This document shows positions 34,266 through 41,030 of a DNA stretch of 64,000 nucleotides, piece after piece. Every line of letters starts with the position of its first letter. The stretch's first letter is position 1. A program made the position numbers and the translations under genes. The notes beneath the pieces are model-generated. The model was not told the origin of the DNA, made no database searches, and was given only the letters and a program-made list of their open reading frames with translations. Source of the stretch: an uncultured Candidatus Actinomarina sp. (GTDB taxonomy: Bacteria > Actinomycetota > Acidimicrobiia > Actinomarinales > Actinomarinaceae); NCBI GenBank assembly GCA_902566515.1, contig CACFIX010000005.1, positions 318-64,317 of the forward strand. Reading direction: 5' to 3'.

Positions 34266-34901
34266 TTATATGTCTTTTAAATTATTCTTTTTCCACTCTT
34301 CGATGTCTTTATGGTTACCAGACAGCAAAACTTCAGGTACAGACAGATTTTTAAATGTTTCGGGCCTTGTATATACAGGAAAGTCATATTTGTTGTCATT
34401 AAATGTTTCATACTTTAATGAATCTGGATTTCCTAATACGCCCGGAATCCTTCTTATTAAAGCTTCGAGCAAATACATCGCTGGAACTTCACCTCCAGAA
34501 ATGACGGTGTGTCCAATAGAAACTTCATAATCTGAATGGATATCCAGGATTCTTTGATCAAAACCTTCATATCTGCCTGCAATTAGATTTATGGACTTAA
34601 ATGATAATAATTCAATTAATAGAGTTTCATCCAACTGCTCCCCTGATGGTGTTAGAAAAACATTAATTTCTGAATTTGAAGAGTTAATCGCATTGTCTAA
34701 TGGCTCAGGCATTAATACCATTCCAGGTCCCCCGCCATATGGAGCATCATCTACTTGTTTATATTCTCCAATTCCAAATTCCCTTAAGTTTGTAGTTTGA
34801 ATATTTACCAACTGATTTTTAATAGCTTGTCTCACAATGCCTATATTTTTCCACTCCTCAATTAAATTAGGGAATAGTGTAATGACATTATATGTATTCA
34901 T
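34266..34901 (-). CDS. trmD: tRNA (guanine37-N1)-methyltransferase
   Basis: 211 aa. 'DDAPYGGGPGMVL', 'GRYEGFDQR' and 'SIGHTVISGGE'. The ATG overlaps the cofH stop (ATGA). Confidence 0.9.
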   Translation of the reverse strand: MNTYNVITLFPNLIEEWKNIGIVRQAIKNQLVNIQTTNLREFGIGEYKQVDDAPYGGGPGMVLMPEPLDNAINSSNSEINVFLTPSGEQLDETLLIELLSFKSINLIAGRYEGFDQRILDIHSDYEVSIGHTVISGGEVPAMYLLEALIRRIPGVLGNPDSLKYETFNDNKYDFPVYTRPETFKNLSVPEVLLSGNHKDIEEWKKNNLKDI

Positions 34902-36733
34902 GAATATTGGATTAAAGTTTTAGGATTTTTAAAATCTGTATAAAGAGTGTTTCTTAAAACAGGTGTTTTATTACAGTTTTCAATTAGGTCTATAAATTGC
35001 TGCTCCGTAGTTTCTTGACCATGGTTGGCTCCAGAAGCTCTACTAATATTTTCATTAATTAATGTACCTCCTAAATCATTTACACCTGCATCTAATAATT
35101 TACCAGCACCATCATGCCCTAGCTTCACCCAGCTTGCCTGTATATTATTAATTACATTTGTAAAATATATTCGAGCAAGTGAATGAATTAGAACAACTTC
35201 ATCCCATGTAGGACCTCGCATGCTTTTTCCTTGCAAATAAATTGGAGATCCCATATGTACAAAAGGTAGGGGTACAACTTCTGTAAAACCCCCAGTTTTT
35301 AACTGGATATTCTTTATAAGCGAGAAATGATTTACCCATGACTCTACATCATCAATATGTCCAAACATGATTGTTGCTGTAGACTTCATTCCTAAACCGT
35401 GAGCTACTTCCATCACATATGCCCATTGAGATGACGTTATCTTATCTGGACACAAATATTTTCGGACTCTATCATCTAATATTTCAGCTGCAGTTCCTGG
35501 TAATGTATTCAGACCAGCATCAAAAAGAAGTTTTAAATAATCTTCAATACTCAAATTTATTGTCTCAGCACCTTGCCATATTTCTAAAGGTGTAAAACCA
35601 TGAATGTGTATTTCTGGTATTGATTGTTTTATTTCCCTTACCATATTTAAATAAAATTCACCTGTGTAATCAGGATGTATTCCTCCTTGTAAACATACTT
35701 CGGAAGCTCCCATTTCAAAAGCCTCAACGGTTCTATCTACTACCTCTTTTATATCAATAGAATATGGTTTTTCTTTAAGATTTAAACTTTTTGGACCTTT
35801 TGAGAATCCACAGAAACCACATTTGTAATAGCATTGATTTGTATAGTTAATATTCCTATTTTTAACAAAAGTTACTTTGTTGCCATTTTTTAGGAAATTT
35901 AATTGATTTGCAACATCAGCGATATCATTTATTTTTTCACCAGCAGTATTAAATAAAAGATTTAATTCATCATCATTAATTTGATAACCATTTAATACAT
36001 TATTTAGAATCTCATCTATACCGTAATGATTTATTTGGCTTTTATTGTTATATACAAAATTGTTTAACTGAGGTATATCTTTTCCGCTACCAGGAAACCA
36101 ATCGGTTTTCTCTCTTCTAAATCCTCTTACGTTTCTTGTGTTTAAATATCTAAAGAAACGCTCTTTACTGAATTCTTTCCTTGCTTCATCAATTGAAAAA
36201 ACTGGAGATAGTAATGTTCTCTCGTAAAAATTAAAACCTTGAATACTTTGTAATTCATCAATTTGTGCTGAACTCCAATCTCTCAGCAACAAATCAGAAA
36301 TTCCATTTTTAATGTAGCCAAGTGCTTCGTCAATAGTGTTTACGTATGCTGTTGTTATAAATTTAGTTTTTGTGTTTATTCCTTGTAAAAAATTTATGTC
36401 TAAAGGATCTGATACCAATACAGTGTAGGGCTTCAATCTATCTATAACTTCAAGTGAAATTTCTTTGTTATTTTTAAAATCATAAACAATTCTTTTGGGA
36501 TTTATATCCTTAAAGTCTTCCCAATTATTATCCTTAATTATCCAACAATCAGAATCTACTGATACATCTTTGGACAAAGTTTGAAAATCTTTTTTATGTA
36601 TTTCACTAATATCAAGATCTAATTCACTTTTAATTAAAAAAGCAGATGTGCCCTCTTTTCGTCTAGAATTTAGATAGATTTCATTATTGTTATCGCAGGG
36701 TCTTATTCTTAAAAAAGAAATATTTTCATTCAT
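34898..36733 (-). CDS. cofH: F0 synthase subunit CofH (FbiC C-terminal half) with an N-terminal extension of about 235 aa
   Basis: Radical-SAM 'NQCYYKCGFCGF', 'CLQGGIHPD' and 'GVNDLGGTLINENISRASG'. I place the start at ATG 36733, which overlaps the cofG stop by 8 nt. The longest ORF runs to 36796. Confidence 0.85.
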   Translation of the reverse strand: MNENISFLRIRPCDNNNEIYLNSRRKEGTSAFLIKSELDLDISEIHKKDFQTLSKDVSVDSDCWIIKDNNWEDFKDINPKRIVYDFKNNKEISLEVIDRLKPYTVLVSDPLDINFLQGINTKTKFITTAYVNTIDEALGYIKNGISDLLLRDWSSAQIDELQSIQGFNFYERTLLSPVFSIDEARKEFSKERFFRYLNTRNVRGFRREKTDWFPGSGKDIPQLNNFVYNNKSQINHYGIDEILNNVLNGYQINDDELNLLFNTAGEKINDIADVANQLNFLKNGNKVTFVKNRNINYTNQCYYKCGFCGFSKGPKSLNLKEKPYSIDIKEVVDRTVEAFEMGASEVCLQGGIHPDYTGEFYLNMVREIKQSIPEIHIHGFTPLEIWQGAETINLSIEDYLKLLFDAGLNTLPGTAAEILDDRVRKYLCPDKITSSQWAYVMEVAHGLGMKSTATIMFGHIDDVESWVNHFSLIKNIQLKTGGFTEVVPLPFVHMGSPIYLQGKSMRGPTWDEVVLIHSLARIYFTNVINNIQASWVKLGHDGAGKLLDAGVNDLGGTLINENISRASGANHGQETTEQQFIDLIENCNKTPVLRNTLYTDFKNPKTLIQYS

Positions 36734-37844
36734 GTGAGTCTTTTGGGTAACCATCTGTATCAATAATATTATTAACTTTTTCAAAAATTTCGTCATTTAA
36801 CCATTCTTTTTTTATAAATTCTGGATATATTGGAAGTCTTTTTTTAAGCACTTGACCAGTTAATGAAGTATCTTTTTTTAATTTATCAATATTTGGCCAA
36901 AGGTGATCTGGATTTACCCAATCTATAGTCAATGGTGAAATTCCACCAAGATCATTTATTCCACTTTTTAGAAACAAATTTATGTCTGGCGACAAATTAG
37001 GTGGAACTTGAATTGAAATATGAGAAGGAGAATATATTCTAGTGGTAGCAATTATTCTTAAAAATAAGTCATTTGTAATTTCAGAATTATTCTTCATAAT
37101 CGTATTTTTTTTAGCTCTAAAATTTTGAAGGATAATCTCCTGAATAGCCATATTATTTTGAATTAATAAAATGATGTTTGTTATATCATCTACCACTTCA
37201 TCTTTGGTAGAAGTAAGTCCTAAAAGAAGCCCTGTAGTTACTGGGTACTTTGCTTGTAGAGCATTTTCTAGAGATTCAATTCTAAGATCGATAAATTTTG
37301 TTTGAGTTTTGTAATGAGCTTGTCCCTTATCATATATATTTTTTGAAAATGTTTCAATCATTAAGCCGCCGGATGGTGAATATTTTTTTAACTCTTTTAT
37401 TTCTTCAAAACTCATCAATCCAGGATTTGCATGTGGAAATAATTTAAACGTATCATTAACTTTTTTCATTGAACTGATCAAGTAATCATGAGTTGAAGAA
37501 AATCCAAGTTGTTCGAGTTGAGTCAACGCAAAGTCCCATTTTAATTCTGGCTTATCCCCTAATGTAAATAAAGCCTCGTAACATCCTGCTTCATCACCTG
37601 CACTTGCAATACTTAAAACTTCTTCTTCGTTTAAATATGTTCCACCTTCATTTGGTGATTTAACAAAAGTACAATATCCACAACTATCTCTACACATTGT
37701 TGTAAGTGGTATGAATACTTTTGGGCTGTAAGTTATTGTATTCCCAAAATAATGTTTTTTTCTATCGAATGCTTTAGTAAGCAAATCTTCAGTTTGTTCA
37801 GGTCCAAAAATTGAATCGTGAATATTTCTTCTTAATTCTCTCAT
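36726..37844 (-). CDS. cofG: F0 synthase subunit CofG (FbiC N-terminal half)
   Basis: 372 aa. Radical-SAM 'MCRDSCGYCTF' and 'GINDLGGISPLT'. Confidence 0.9.
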   Translation of the reverse strand: MRELRRNIHDSIFGPEQTEDLLTKAFDRKKHYFGNTITYSPKVFIPLTTMCRDSCGYCTFVKSPNEGGTYLNEEEVLSIASAGDEAGCYEALFTLGDKPELKWDFALTQLEQLGFSSTHDYLISSMKKVNDTFKLFPHANPGLMSFEEIKELKKYSPSGGLMIETFSKNIYDKGQAHYKTQTKFIDLRIESLENALQAKYPVTTGLLLGLTSTKDEVVDDITNIILLIQNNMAIQEIILQNFRAKKNTIMKNNSEITNDLFLRIIATTRIYSPSHISIQVPPNLSPDINLFLKSGINDLGGISPLTIDWVNPDHLWPNIDKLKKDTSLTGQVLKKRLPIYPEFIKKEWLNDEIFEKVNNIIDTDGYPKDSHE

Positions 37845-37913
37845 ACTTAGTGTTTTTAAGGTATATTATTAGTTGATTGTAACAACAATTAATCAATAGT
37901 TTTGTGAGGGTTG

Positions 37914-38918
37914 ATGACAAATGTTTCACTTGTTGGTTTTGGAAGAATAGGTAGAGACCTATTCAGACAGACATTGGGAGACAAAGACATTAACATAGTC
38001 TCAATATCAGATACTGCTGATAAAAAAAACCTAATTTATTTGCTCAAATATGACTCTATATATGGAAAATTGAATACTGAAATCCATGAGACAGAAACAG
38101 GCATTGTTGTAGATGACAAAGAAATCATATTCAACTCTTGGAAAGATGGAGATGAAGCTGATTGGGCGAAAATTGGAACAGATGTTGTAATACTTGCAAC
38201 TGGTAAACCAAAAACAAAAAAAGAAGTTGATGTACATTTATCAAAGGGGTGTAAAAAAGTAATAGTTGCCTCTACACCAGAAAATTTTAAAGATATCCAA
38301 ATTTTTGTACCTGGTGCAAACGATGAAAATATTGATTTTAAATCAAATGTGTTTTCTCTAGGATCAAATACTGCAAATGCTGTTGCACCAATACTAAAAG
38401 CATTAGATAAAGACGTAGGCGTGGAGAGAGCTTTTTTAACAACTGTGCATGGATATTCGAACTCGAACAGATTAGCTGATGTAGCTGGTGAAGGATTTAG
38501 ACTAAATAGGGCCGCTGGCGAAAATATAATACCTAGTATTACTAAATCATCAGAAGTAATTGTAAATGTACTTCCTTTTTTAAAAAATAAAATAGCATCC
38601 TCATCAATGACAGTTCCAATTCCTGATGGAAGTACAGTAGACCTAACAATAGATATTAGAAAAGAAACAACTATTGAAGAAATTAACAATCTGCTAAAAA
38701 ACTATTCAGAACATGATTTAAAAAATATAATCGGAATTACATACGACCCAATTGTTTCTTCTGATGTAGTCAGAAGCACATTTTCTGGACTGATAGATGG
38801 TCTTGCTACAATGGGTATTAATAATAAGAAAATAAAATTAATAATTTGGTTTGATAACGGTTGGGGTTACGCTGCAAGAATAATAGACACTATCAAACGA
38901 TTGGGACAGGAACTCTAA
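37914..38918 (+). CDS. GAPDH-like paralog lacking the catalytic cysteine (predicted pseudoenzyme)
   Basis: Full-length GAPDH fold ('VGFGRIGR', 'TTVHGYS', 'WFDNGWGYA'). The active-site block reads 'SLGSNTANAVAP' instead of 'SNASCTTNCLAP'. 'TGAAKA' is 'TKSSEV' and 'MRVP' is 'MTVP'. Confidence 0.8.
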   Translation: MTNVSLVGFGRIGRDLFRQTLGDKDINIVSISDTADKKNLIYLLKYDSIYGKLNTEIHETETGIVVDDKEIIFNSWKDGDEADWAKIGTDVVILATGKPKTKKEVDVHLSKGCKKVIVASTPENFKDIQIFVPGANDENIDFKSNVFSLGSNTANAVAPILKALDKDVGVERAFLTTVHGYSNSNRLADVAGEGFRLNRAAGENIIPSITKSSEVIVNVLPFLKNKIASSSMTVPIPDGSTVDLTIDIRKETTIEEINNLLKNYSEHDLKNIIGITYDPIVSSDVVRSTFSGLIDGLATMGINNKKIKLIIWFDNGWGYAARIIDTIKRLGQEL

Positions 38919-39917
38919 ATGGGTAACGTAGCTATAAATGGTTTTGGAAGAATTGGTAGATCAATTCTAAGGATTATTGTAGAAAATGATTCTGATATAA
39001 ATGTTGTGGCAATCAATGATTTAGGGAACTATGAAAATCTTGCATATCTGCTTAAACATGATTCAGTAATGGGAATATTAGATAGAAATGTAAGCGTTTC
39101 TAGAGATAAATTAATTGTAGATGATAGGACTATACAATTAACTTCAATTAAAGACCCTGCGGAGCTTCCTTGGAAAGAAATGGATGTTGATGTTGTTGTT
39201 GAATCAACTGGAATATTTAGAGATAGTGAATCATTAAATAAACATCTTGATGCTGGAGCTAAAAAAGTATTGCTAACTGTACCTCCAAAAGACGATATAG
39301 ATGCGACAATAGTCCTCGGTGTCAATGATGGTGATCTTAAGCCTGAAGATAAAATAGTTTCAAATGCATCTTGCACTACAAACTGTTTAGCTCCTATAGC
39401 AAAAGTTTTAGATGATAACTTTGGAATTTTATCCGGATTGATGACAACTGTACATGCATATACTAATGATCAAGCATTAGCTGAAACTACCCATAGTGAT
39501 TTTAGACGAGGACGTAGTGCAACTCAAAATATTATCCCTACATCAACTGGTGCAGCAAAAGCTGTTGGTATGGTTCTTCCAGAACTTAATGGTAAATTAG
39601 ATGGAATGGCTATGAGAGTACCAGTTCCTGATGGAAGCGTAGTTGATCTTGTCGTTGAATTAGAAAAAAAAGTCTCTATAGATGATATCAATAAGGCAGT
39701 TAAGAGTGCTGCAGATAATGAGTTAAATGGAATATTAGAGTATTCAGAAGTTCCTCTTGTATCTACTGATATTTTGAACAATCCGCACTCAAGTATTTAC
39801 GATGCTTCTTCTACTCAGTTACTAGAAGGAAATCATGTAAAAGTAGTTTGCTGGTACGACAATGAGTGGGGATATTCAAATAGAGTTGTAGATTTAATTG
39901 GAAAACTTACTAGATAA
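38919..39917 (+). CDS. gap: Glyceraldehyde-3-phosphate dehydrogenase (type I, canonical)
   Basis: 332 aa. 'NGFGRIGR', 'SNASCTTNCLAP', 'TTVHAYTNDQ', 'STGAAKAVG' and 'WYDNEWGYS'. Confidence 0.93.
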   Translation: MGNVAINGFGRIGRSILRIIVENDSDINVVAINDLGNYENLAYLLKHDSVMGILDRNVSVSRDKLIVDDRTIQLTSIKDPAELPWKEMDVDVVVESTGIFRDSESLNKHLDAGAKKVLLTVPPKDDIDATIVLGVNDGDLKPEDKIVSNASCTTNCLAPIAKVLDDNFGILSGLMTTVHAYTNDQALAETTHSDFRRGRSATQNIIPTSTGAAKAVGMVLPELNGKLDGMAMRVPVPDGSVVDLVVELEKKVSIDDINKAVKSAADNELNGILEYSEVPLVSTDILNNPHSSIYDASSTQLLEGNHVKVVCWYDNEWGYSNRVVDLIGKLTR

Positions 39918-40333
39918 TGGATAAAGAATTACCAGTTGCACCATCGGCTATTGGAAATTATGTAACATATAAAAAAGTTGGAAATTACATATATACATCT
40001 GGCCACGTTCCATTTACTGAAAAGAAAAAATATCAAGGAAAGATACCTTCTGAGGTATCAATAGCAGATGGTTATCAAGCTGCTTCCCTATGTGCTGAAT
40101 TAACTATATCTACACTCTTAGCTAATGGTGAAATTGAAAATCTACAGCCTGTAAATGTATTAGGATTCGTAAATGCTGATAATGATTTTCAAGATCACGC
40201 AAAAGTATTGAATGGTTTTACGGATAAGCTTGCAGAATATTTTGAAGAAAAATCAACACGGTCTGCTGTTGGAGTTGCGAGCTTACCACTTAATGTGTCT
40301 GTGGAAGTTCAATGTATTTTTGTAAATGAATAA
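39917..40333 (+). CDS. RidA/YjgF/Endoribonuclease L-PSP family protein
   Basis: 138 aa. 'IYTSGHVP' and 'RSAVGVASLPLNVSVEVQCIF'. TAATG overlap with gap. Confidence 0.78.
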   Translation: MDKELPVAPSAIGNYVTYKKVGNYIYTSGHVPFTEKKKYQGKIPSEVSIADGYQAASLCAELTISTLLANGEIENLQPVNVLGFVNADNDFQDHAKVLNGFTDKLAEYFEEKSTRSAVGVASLPLNVSVEVQCIFVNE

Positions 40334-41030
40334 ATTAATTGGAATCTCAACTGGAATAAAAGATGTTCAAATGGCACCTGGAAATATTCCATGTGTTGTA
40401 ATAAACAATGATTTTATAAACTTATGTAACAAATTTGGGAATACTGCAATAGTTATTGGTCCACAAAATGATAATCTTGAAATTGATGCTTCAAAATTTG
40501 ATGCTTTGATAATTTCTGGAGGTGGAGATATAAACCCAGAAAGGTATAACCAAAAAATTGATTCTAAAACAATTCGAATATCAGACAATAGAGATTTTAC
40601 TGAATTGAATCTACTCAAATCTGCAGAAGAAAACAACGTCAAAACTCTTGCAATATGTAGAGGACATCAATTATTGAATGTTTATAAAAACGGTACTTTA
40701 TATCAAGATCTTAATGATTCAGGTTTTAAAGACATTGAGCACGATAAACCATTCGGAGAGGCTCGATCTCACATTCATGATATTGAAGTTTTTGAAGATT
40801 CAAAACTATATGAAATAATTCAAGAAAAAAACATAATGGTAAATTCTATACATCATCAAGGTATTGATAAATTAGGTAAAGATTTAAAAATAACTGCAAA
40901 ATCAAATGATGGTGTGATTGAAGGAATTGAAACTACTAATGAATGGAATGCTATTGGTATTCAATGGCATCCAGAAAATATGATAAAAGATACATATAGT
41001 AATTTAATTTTTAACTGGTTAAACAGTTAG
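40326..41030 (+). CDS. Class I glutamine amidotransferase, peptidase C26 / gamma-glutamyl-GABA hydrolase (PuuD-like)
   Basis: 234 aa. 'LAICRGHQLLNV' (nucleophile Cys) and 'GIQWHPE'. Confidence 0.8.
   Translation: MNKLIGISTGIKDVQMAPGNIPCVVINNDFINLCNKFGNTAIVIGPQNDNLEIDASKFDALIISGGGDINPERYNQKIDSKTIRISDNRDFTELNLLKSAEENNVKTLAICRGHQLLNVYKNGTLYQDLNDSGFKDIEHDKPFGEARSHIHDIEVFEDSKLYEIIQEKNIMVNSIHHQGIDKLGKDLKITAKSNDGVIEGIETTNEWNAIGIQWHPENMIKDTYSNLIFNWLNS

Follow-up and report, generated by a model that had tools for sequence, protein, structure and literature searches.

Why would a streamlined bacterial genome keep, immediately in front of a complete gene for glyceraldehyde-3-phosphate dehydrogenase (GAPDH), a second gene of the same fold that has lost its catalytic residues? 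The question is raised by a stretch of 64,000 nucleotides (the window) from an uncultured Candidatus Actinomarina sp. (GenBank assembly GCA_902566515.1, contig CACFIX010000005.1, positions 318 to 64,317), which carries four genes on its + strand: the GAPDH-like gene A, the GAPDH gene B, a Rid-family gene (rid) and a gene for a peptidase C26-like protein (C26). A model that read the letters alone (the sequence-only reading) had proposed that a dead paralog, encoded by gene A, is coupled to the other three genes and may have a heteromeric or regulatory partnership with the live enzyme. Following up this proposal, we assign gene A to a multi-phylum subfamily of GAPDH-like proteins, here termed A-type. 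We lean towards the view that the product of gene A is a partner subunit that lacks catalytic activity, probably binds NAD(H) and would be co-translated with the GAPDH encoded by gene B, co-assemble with it and modulate it.

Gene A retains the GAPDH fold and lacks the catalytic residues

Gene A (37914..38918, + strand) encodes 334 residues from its ATG, and Pfam matches, alignment and an AlphaFold2 model class its product as an A-type GAPDH-like pseudoenzyme. Both Pfam domains of the two-domain GAPDH fold, Gp_dh_N and Gp_dh_C, match it, with 87.9 and 138.9 bits, respectively. The AlphaFold2 model is of high confidence (predicted local distance difference test 90.5, predicted template modelling score 0.90) and weak only in the S-loop (model residues 182-201), and Foldseek matched it to the solved GAPDH 1gd1 with a TM-score of 0.93. 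No additional DNA-, RNA- or protein-binding domain was found in the protein, the 334 residues representing a pure GAPDH fold. On TIGR01534, the equivalog model of type I GAPDH, gene A reached 280.4 bits against a cut-off of 367.2, and it also fell under the cut-offs of all nine NCBIfam models for GAPDH and erythrose-4-phosphate dehydrogenase (E4PDH), none of which covers it. Similarly, no solved structure of an A-type protein was found in the PDB, where the best matches of gene A and of an A-type profile were ordinary GAPDHs. Judged from these models and profile matches, the paralog falls in no known functional non-GAPDH clade, the assignment that would have spoken against a novel partner in the sequence-only reading. 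Gene B (38919..39917, + strand), which is 37% identical to gene A at the protein level, encodes a canonical type I phosphorylating GAPDH of 332 residues, as defined by its TIGR01534 score (446.1 bits, above the same cut-off) and its catalytic residues, and likewise carries both GAPDH Pfam domains. The description of two full-length GAPDH-fold genes in tandem, the second of them canonical, was thus accurate.

Aligned to the GAPDH of B. stearothermophilus, whose residue numbering we use throughout for both genes, gene A shows the substitutions C149N, C153A, T179S, R195L, G209K, A210S, R231T and E314G. The codon at the position of the nucleophilic Cys149, part of the SxCTTN motif, is AAT for Asn (38367..38369, + strand; read directly). 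R195L converts RRGR into RLNR, R231T replaces the Arg of the MRVP motif, and the T208-G209-A210 segment of the TGAAKA motif reads T-K-S. With the published residue definitions of the Pi or 'new Pi' site and the Ps site (PMC2662861), the Ps anion site (T179, R195, R231) is occupied by S, L and T, and the Pi loop still contains S148, T150 and T208 but is altered by G209K and A210S. Other parts of the enzyme are preserved: gene A retains GFGRIGR (G7/G9/G12, R10, I11), as well as D32, S148, T150, H176, R197, T208, N313 and Y317, and the general base His176, embedded in TTVHGYS, is His in all A genes. The alignment therefore bears out every loss that had been read from the letters, and the columns proposed for a check, Cys149, Arg231 and Thr179, indeed hold N, T and S. 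Because the nucleophile (C149N), the Ps site (R195L/R231T), the Pi loop (G209K/A210S) and E314 are all lost, the gene A protein is unable to carry out the GAPDH reaction. Gene B carries C149, H176, T179, R195, T208, G209, R231, N313 and E314, as do 77 of 77 B orthologues.

The altered residues are conserved under purifying selection

Asn149, Ala153 and Gly314 are invariant in 81 of 81 A genes from Acidimicrobiia, including genes from outside Actinomarina with no more than 43-47% identity to the window protein. Because of this invariance across orthologues, the Asn149 pattern is far beyond what chance would give, and the worry that the Asn codon reflects an assembly error, raised together with the original proposal, can be put aside. 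Among the A genes matched by a motif search, Asn149 is encoded by AAT in 40 cases and by AAC in 13. The ratio of nonsynonymous to synonymous substitution rates (dN/dS) against close relatives ranges from 0.05 to 0.13 for gene A, as compared to 0.04-0.25 for gene B; by this measure, gene A is under strong purifying selection. Its reading frame is intact in nearly all of 80 reference-genome loci, and close homologues are abundant in marine metagenomes. In one single-cell genome (AG-917-O09, L032:6001-7003), gene A is cut to 254 residues in a locus that is 1 nt longer, probably through a single-base assembly error. Published genomes of the order measure about 1.1 Mb, with 32.5% GC, 97% coding sequence, a median spacer of 2 bp and about 40 paralogs (PMC7771536), and we count the retention of gene A in a genome of this kind in favour of its being functional. 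Within the A genes of Acidimicrobiia, conservation is unevenly distributed. The residues of the NAD/nicotinamide pocket (GxGxxG, D32, S148, N149, T150, H176, N313, Y317) are essentially invariant, and the phosphate-binding positions 181, 195, 209 and 231 drift.

The A-type subfamily and the apparent stepwise decay of its active site

We delimited the A-type subfamily by a search of a representative library, two further searches and a metagenome scan. The nearest non-Actinomarina relatives of gene A include GAPDH-like proteins that lack Cys149 and instead carry S, V, A, P or G at this position, and R231N and E314G are common to them. In neighbour-joining trees, the A-types, along with one more divergent relative, split from all canonical GAPDHs, including the B partners, in 91 of 100 bootstraps. 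A first tree had hinted that the B partners might likewise form one clean clade; the bootstrapped analysis gave no strict B-only bipartition, and we dropped the idea. Compared to canonical GAPDHs, A-types are marked by G in place of E314 (60/60), N or T in place of R231, and N, W, R or K in place of G209, where H also occurs. Further differences are Q, N or S for T206, S, A or G for H190, S, A or V for N31, and M, F or V for N6. Database names do not set the subfamily apart: A-types are listed as type I GAPDH or as "GAPDH NAD-binding domain-containing protein".

The residue at position 149 varies widely across the subfamily. In one search sample, 93 of 117 A-type matches retained Cys149, and among 68 metagenome A-types the residue was C in 30, S in 22, N in 6, V in 3, I in 2 and T in 2, the rest having P, A or D. 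Overall, about half of the A-type lineages have lost Cys149. Because nine different residues (C, S, N, V, I, T, P, A, D) occupy this position in A-types that all retain a B partner, the function of the subfamily is linked to B and independent of residue 149. Where Cys149 is kept, R195 is kept as well (113/117), and R195 is missing almost only where Cys149 has already gone (90 of 94 cases, including all 80 Acidimicrobiia genes). Since the loss of R195 is almost confined to A-types without Cys149, the active site of the subfamily would have decayed in steps, and repeatedly, with the gene A of the window among the most degenerate members. Two A-types (L088, L111) combine Asn149 with C153 and R195 still in place (signature NCHTRT...), and because of them the exchange of Cys for Asn seems to have arisen more than once. 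Ser149 is encoded by both AGY and TCN codons in A-types.

The searches also returned unusually long proteins. P0390-P0392 (564-677 residues, 'double GAPDH') looked like natural A-B fusions but proved to be A genes with a frameshift, from which the reading runs on through out-of-frame junk into B. In high-GC DNA the shifted frame meets no stop, and such entries are artefacts or pseudogenes that appear in databases as fusion look-alikes. P0124 (2089 residues), a protein of the representative library, contains three to four canonical GAPDH modules.

A-type genes precede canonical gap genes in several phyla

Gene A is followed by a canonical gap gene on the same strand in 76 of 80 genome loci, and the pair is also present in L081-L085, which stem from a Krumholzibacteria genome and related contigs, and in L086-L088. 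The metagenome sample gave the same picture: all 61 A-types with at least 450 nt of downstream sequence preceded a canonical gap gene, 56 of these B genes being full length and 5 being cut by a contig end or a frameshift. The source labels, although some clearly reflect mis-binning, assign the pair to at least three phyla, with representatives in Acidimicrobiia, Krumholzibacteria and Acidobacteriota (Terriglobia, Polarisedimenticolaceae). The dead/live pair that had been proposed as a subject for a search in related genomes is therefore conserved far beyond this genome. Probably mis-binned contigs are L008 (NYXO01000074.1), labelled as a Methanobacteriota archaeon, and L048/L049 and L070, labelled as Gammaproteobacteria and Verrucomicrobiales. 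On L008, the cofG-A-B-rid-C26-rimM block of Actinomarina is present with 85% identity, an Acidimicrobiia-type A-B pair is found on L049 and L070, and on L048 only gene A was recovered, at the contig end.

The two genes are also tightly joined. In the window, the A/B junction reads TAA|ATG with a 0-nt gap (38916..38921, + strand; read directly), and a purine-rich GGGACAGGA lies 8-16 nt 5' of the gene B start. This closeness is by itself uninformative. Of 61 same-strand neighbour pairs in the window, 33 are separated by 0 nt or overlap, with a median gap of 0, and the window has a coding density of 97.6%; because abutting or overlapping genes are the genomic norm here, the window junctions carry no special weight, and we discarded them as evidence of coupling. 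The overlap of A and B is informative in the non-Actinomarina loci, because those genomes are not streamlined. There, the junction is ATGA, a 4-nt overlap, in 34 of 35 non-Actinomarina Acidimicrobiia, and it overlaps by 4 nt or by 1 nt (TGATG/TAATG type) in 52 of 61 other loci.

In many relatives, the pair resides among glycolytic genes. The gene order is gpmI-A-B-pgk in L096 and A-B-pfk in L088, pgk directly follows B in L099, L100 and L103, and a divergent pgk-tpiA adjoins gene A in ten Acidimicrobiia loci (L045, L046, L048, L049, L052, L054, L055, L068, L069, L077). Of five sampled canonical gap genes without an upstream A, four show the ordinary gap-pgk arrangement. A motif scan found neither pgk nor tpiA in the 64-kb window, so that the reported absence of the usual gap-pgk-tpiA arrangement stands for the window itself; what it missed is that relatives have the pair in or beside gpmI, pgk, tpiA or pfk. 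In the loci compared, no further pathway gene was linked consistently to the pair across lineages. Because the pair occurs in glycolytic contexts and A-less gap genes mostly form gap-pgk, gene B looks like a housekeeping glycolytic GAPDH and gene A like an addition to its operon. The 3' end of gene B varies between close relatives: in the window, the 332-residue gene overlaps rid by 1 nt (39915-39917), and in 98%-identical single-cell orthologues (L001-L014:8003-8010) it encodes 334 residues and overlaps rid by 8 nt.

S-loop conservation points to an interface role

The S-loop of a GAPDH subunit lies at the interface within the tetramer, where it lines the neighbouring subunit's NAD site. In A genes, it is the best-kept segment, with a mean pairwise identity of 68% as compared to 49-55% elsewhere, and the part most similar to the cognate B. 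A motif in this loop, RL[AS]D[VIA], is present in 41 of 60 A-types and 51 of 58 B partners but absent from all 41 further canonical GAPDHs in the sample. This pattern suggests a duplicated B-clade gap gene as the origin of A, a joint constraint on the S-loops of A and B, or both, and the conservation and sharing of the motif point to a role at the interface. Among the Foldseek matches was 1dbv, a cofactor-specificity mutant (D32/L187/P188), in agreement with the role of the S-loop at the NAD site. In Actinomarinales, the B genes (L001-L041; window 39462-39533) have replaced the S-loop sequence QRLADVPH by QALAETTH, and the A genes have kept RLADV with the next residues changed (VAGEGF), so that in this one lineage the loop has changed in A as well as in B.

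Taken together, we envisage that A and B would be made from one mRNA in roughly fixed proportion and would co-assemble into a mixed tetramer, in the simplest case A2B2, with turnover of glyceraldehyde-3-phosphate confined to the B sites. Because the S-loop of one GAPDH subunit lines the NAD site of its neighbour, the inert, NAD(H)-binding A subunit could tune the cofactor affinity, cooperativity or stability of B, for example according to the NAD+/NADH ratio. As to its origin, a B-clade gap gene may have been duplicated, as indicated by the RLADV S-loop motif common only to A-types and B partners. The A copy would then have lost R231 and E314 and, once needed only as a partner, Cys149 and subsequently R195, repeatedly and in separate lineages. 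In the wider form of this proposal, many uncultured bacteria, such as Acidimicrobiia (with the abundant marine Actinomarina), Krumholzibacteria and Acidobacteriota, would run glycolysis with an obligate heteromeric GAPDH, composed of a catalytic B and an inert NAD(H)-binding A that has shed its nucleophile repeatedly, and thus with a bacterial 'prozyme'. We consider this generalization a serious contender, if just short of probable. Features of a prozyme are evident in the pair: A is a paralog of B with lost catalytic residues, given 37% identity and the substitutions listed above, and it is both under purifying selection (dN/dS 0.05-0.13) and co-inherited with B (76/80 genome loci, 61/61 metagenome cases).

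Weighing the alternatives

A partner subunit is not the only way to read these data. The gene A product could instead bind NAD(H) on its own, as a homo-oligomer that serves as, for example, a redox sensor, a regulator or a moonlighting binder and is co-expressed with GAPDH without entering mixed tetramers. In favour of this view, the residues of the NAD pocket are kept while the catalytic and phosphate sites are lost, co-transcription alone would account for the conserved adjacency of A and B, and trypanosomes have a dead GAPDH-like protein whose cofactor site is possibly kept and which has no live partner (PMC4106842). However, a gene order that is fixed in several phyla, with the stop and start codons overlapping, is more typical of genes for the parts of one complex, the B partners specifically share the S-loop motif, and a protein that consists of nothing but the GAPDH fold has no extra domain with which to bind DNA, RNA or protein. 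We therefore regard independent action as unlikely, though deserving of attention. Somewhat less probable still, in our estimate, is that A catalyses a new reaction, independent of a thiol, in or near lower glycolysis, for instance as a dehydrogenase or reductase in which His176 and NAD(H) would serve hydride transfer on a non-phosphorylated or differently bound substrate. The invariance of H176, S148, T150, N313 and Y317, and of Asn149 across Acidimicrobiia, would be understandable in such an enzyme. Likewise, the family-wide changes at G209, R231 and E314 resemble a remodelled site rather than random decay, and the T179 and R195 kept by Cys-retaining A-types suggest past or present catalysis. 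A dedicated active site is, however, difficult to reconcile with nine different residues at position 149 among A-types with the same partner and with the drift of positions 181, 195, 209 and 231 within Acidimicrobiia; in addition, no known family or solved structure matches among the NCBIfam models and the PDB, and no extra pathway gene is consistently linked across lineages.

From the tight junctions, the sequence-only reading had taken all four genes to be coupled; A, B, Rid and C26 would then form a single functional unit, which might, for example, combine GAPDH with metabolite-damage control. This idea draws on the overlapping junctions and on the A-B-rid-C26 order, which recurs in all Actinomarinales loci with enough flank (L001-L041). 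It fails outside this order: Rid and C26 were not found downstream of the pair in the other Acidimicrobiia or the other phyla sampled. Moreover, overlap is the default in these genomes, as seen in the window statistics and the published median spacer of 2 bp (PMC7771536), and neighbours of unrelated function, upp/deoB and trmD/cofH, are joined as tightly as the four genes. A four-gene unit is thus highly improbable, and Rid and C26 are best seen as lineage-specific operon neighbours of the pair, with only a small chance of a functional link. The view that A is a decaying pseudogene or a sequencing or assembly artefact can be considered refuted. The loss of catalytic residues and the one frameshifted single-cell copy (L032) are all that speak for it, against intact frames in nearly all loci, low dN/dS values, altered residues that are invariant across the whole class and a confident AlphaFold2 model.

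A partner subunit of GAPDH, the heteromeric or regulatory relationship put forward at the outset, consequently is the best-supported reading, but several points weigh against it. The case for an A-B complex is built on gene order and sequence alone. A mutual-information scan with average product correction across 123 pairs of A and B (effective number 61) yielded nothing beyond phylogenetic noise; the termini and a few B columns that kept recurring dominated its signal, and no interpretable interface signal emerged. Because A-types that retain Cys149 also retain T179 and R195, the subfamily may have, or may have had, a catalytic role of its own, and the function of A may exceed that of a partner. 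The absolute invariance of Asn149 in Acidimicrobiia could stem from a particular chemical role or ligand and not simply from loss, and the proposed binding of NAD(H) by A is deduced from motifs only.

Relation to known systems

GAPDH is among the most studied enzymes, and bacterial GAPDH is taken to be a homotetramer. In line with the sequence-only reading, which knew of no described example, a search of the full-text literature, with subscription-only papers outside its reach, found no published description of a paired dead/live bacterial GAPDH or of the A-type subfamily. A pseudoenzyme that partners an active paralog is already a known kind of system; the A-type pair would be new in the enzyme family and domain of life concerned. 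In chloroplasts, GapA and GapB are both catalytically active, and regulation proceeds via a C-terminal extension of GapB with a redox Cys pair. Like the proposed A-B complex, the chloroplast A2B2 GAPDH (PDB 2pkq, 7q53) has two paralogous subunits per tetramer, one of them regulatory. In contrast to it, A is catalytically dead, ends at residue 334 without a C-terminal extension and belongs to a bacterial, co-transcribed gene pair, and the complex is a proposal. The trypanosomatid prozymes (AdoMetDC/prozyme, PMC6221367; T. brucei HXK1/HXK2, in PMC4106842) offer a closer functional analogy, a dead paralog forming a heteromer with the live enzyme and being needed for, or modulating, its activity. 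These systems belong to other enzyme families in eukaryotes and are not organized in operons, and activation has been demonstrated there, whereas it is hypothesised here. Plant PDX1.2, a pseudoenzyme paralog of the pyridoxal phosphate synthase PDX1 (PMC6829848), and the PRPS-associated non-catalytic paralogs (PMC13252144) resemble A as non-catalytic paralogs that are kept as regulatory co-subunits of a homo-oligomeric core metabolic enzyme; they have other folds, arose in other lineages and are confined to eukaryotic clades, whereas A-types span several bacterial phyla.

Other relatives of the fold share features with A without matching its profile. T. brucei TbGAPDHL (PMC4106842) is also a GAPDH homolog that lacks key catalytic and substrate residues and maybe retains a cofactor-site ligand. 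Unlike A, which is strongly conserved and paired, it is a poorly conserved, unpaired structural component of the flagellum that has been read as a relic. Epd (NF010058) and the ArsJ-associated GAPDH (NF033735) are divergent paralogs of the same fold with altered roles, but they are active thiol enzymes with Cys149; gene A lacks the nucleophile and scores 213 against a cut-off of 539 and 251 against 450 on the respective models.

If the proposal is correct, a conserved, co-translated and non-catalytic paralog adds a layer of control to central carbon metabolism, in a pair that persists in a 1.1-Mb streamlined genome and spans several phyla. The pair would also provide a natural system for studying the long-debated inter-subunit cooperativity and half-of-sites behaviour of GAPDH, as well as a clear bacterial case of how a pseudoenzyme originates, from duplication via partner dependence to repeated loss of the nucleophile. 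On the practical side, A-types annotated as GAPDH inflate gap copy numbers in metabolic reconstructions of metagenome-assembled genomes.

Downstream and flanking genes

The rid gene (39917..40333, + strand) encodes a Rid-family (YjgF/YER057c/UK114) protein of 138 residues, as seen from matches to PF14588 (52.8 bits) and PF01042 (50.9 bits), and begins within a TAATG junction that overlaps gene B by 1 nt. The protein retains the Arg of the ...TRSAVGVASLP motif, and its nearest solved chain is 3d01, an uncharacterised protein. On TIGR00004, the model of the RidA subfamily, it reached 50 bits against a cut-off of 106. The C26 gene (40326..41030, + strand) encodes a peptidase C26 or class I glutamine amidotransferase-like hydrolase (PuuD/Lin1909-like) of 234 residues, which scored 174.9 bits on PF07722 (cut-off 20.5) and carries the Cys-His-Glu motif. 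The corresponding CRGHQ and WHPE motifs, read by eye, align to 3fij (Lin1909), which together with 6vtv (PuuD) is the nearest solved chain. The rid and C26 genes overlap by 8 nt, and the three junctions within the four-gene row, all read directly, agree with those reported earlier. The previous naming of the two downstream genes holds for C26 and for the Rid superfamily, not for the RidA subfamily, and their conservation beside the pair ends with Actinomarinales.

The window has a G+C content of about 31%, and its proteins are 98% identical to those of single-cell genomes of Candidatus Actinomarina (OCS155 cluster, class Acidimicrobiia). Upstream of gene A lies a divergent, split cofG/cofH for F420 biosynthesis. 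The two open reading frames, cofG (372 residues) and cofH (632 residues), occupy 34898-37844 on the - strand, overlap by 71 nt and represent a split FO synthase. About 315 N-terminal residues of the cofH frame are without a Pfam match and could stem from a wrongly placed start, be a genuine extension or mark a broken fbiC fusion. A link of the pair to F420 biosynthesis was considered, as cofG/cofH adjoin it here and a CofD/YvcK-family gene lies downstream in L069, and was rejected as lineage synteny, being seen only within Acidimicrobiia and in no other phyla. Between cofG and gene A, a divergent intergenic region of 69 nt (37845..37913, + strand) is predicted from its sequence and cross-genus conservation to be a probable promoter/operator. 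It contains the block TATATTATTAGTTGATTGTAACAACAATT (about 37860-37890; 37860-37896 with the repeat), an inverted repeat TTGATT/AATCAA and a GAGGG just 5' of the ATG. Although the flanking proteins are only about 65% identical between Actinomarinales genera, the TATATTATTAGTTGATTGTAACAACAATT block is kept among these genera, and it is a candidate promoter/operator common to gene A and the divergent cofG. Downstream of the four genes follows a convergent rimM-KH-rpsP cluster, and the 3' ends of C26 and rimM overlap by 12 nt (41019-41030), a further sign of the extreme compaction of this genome.

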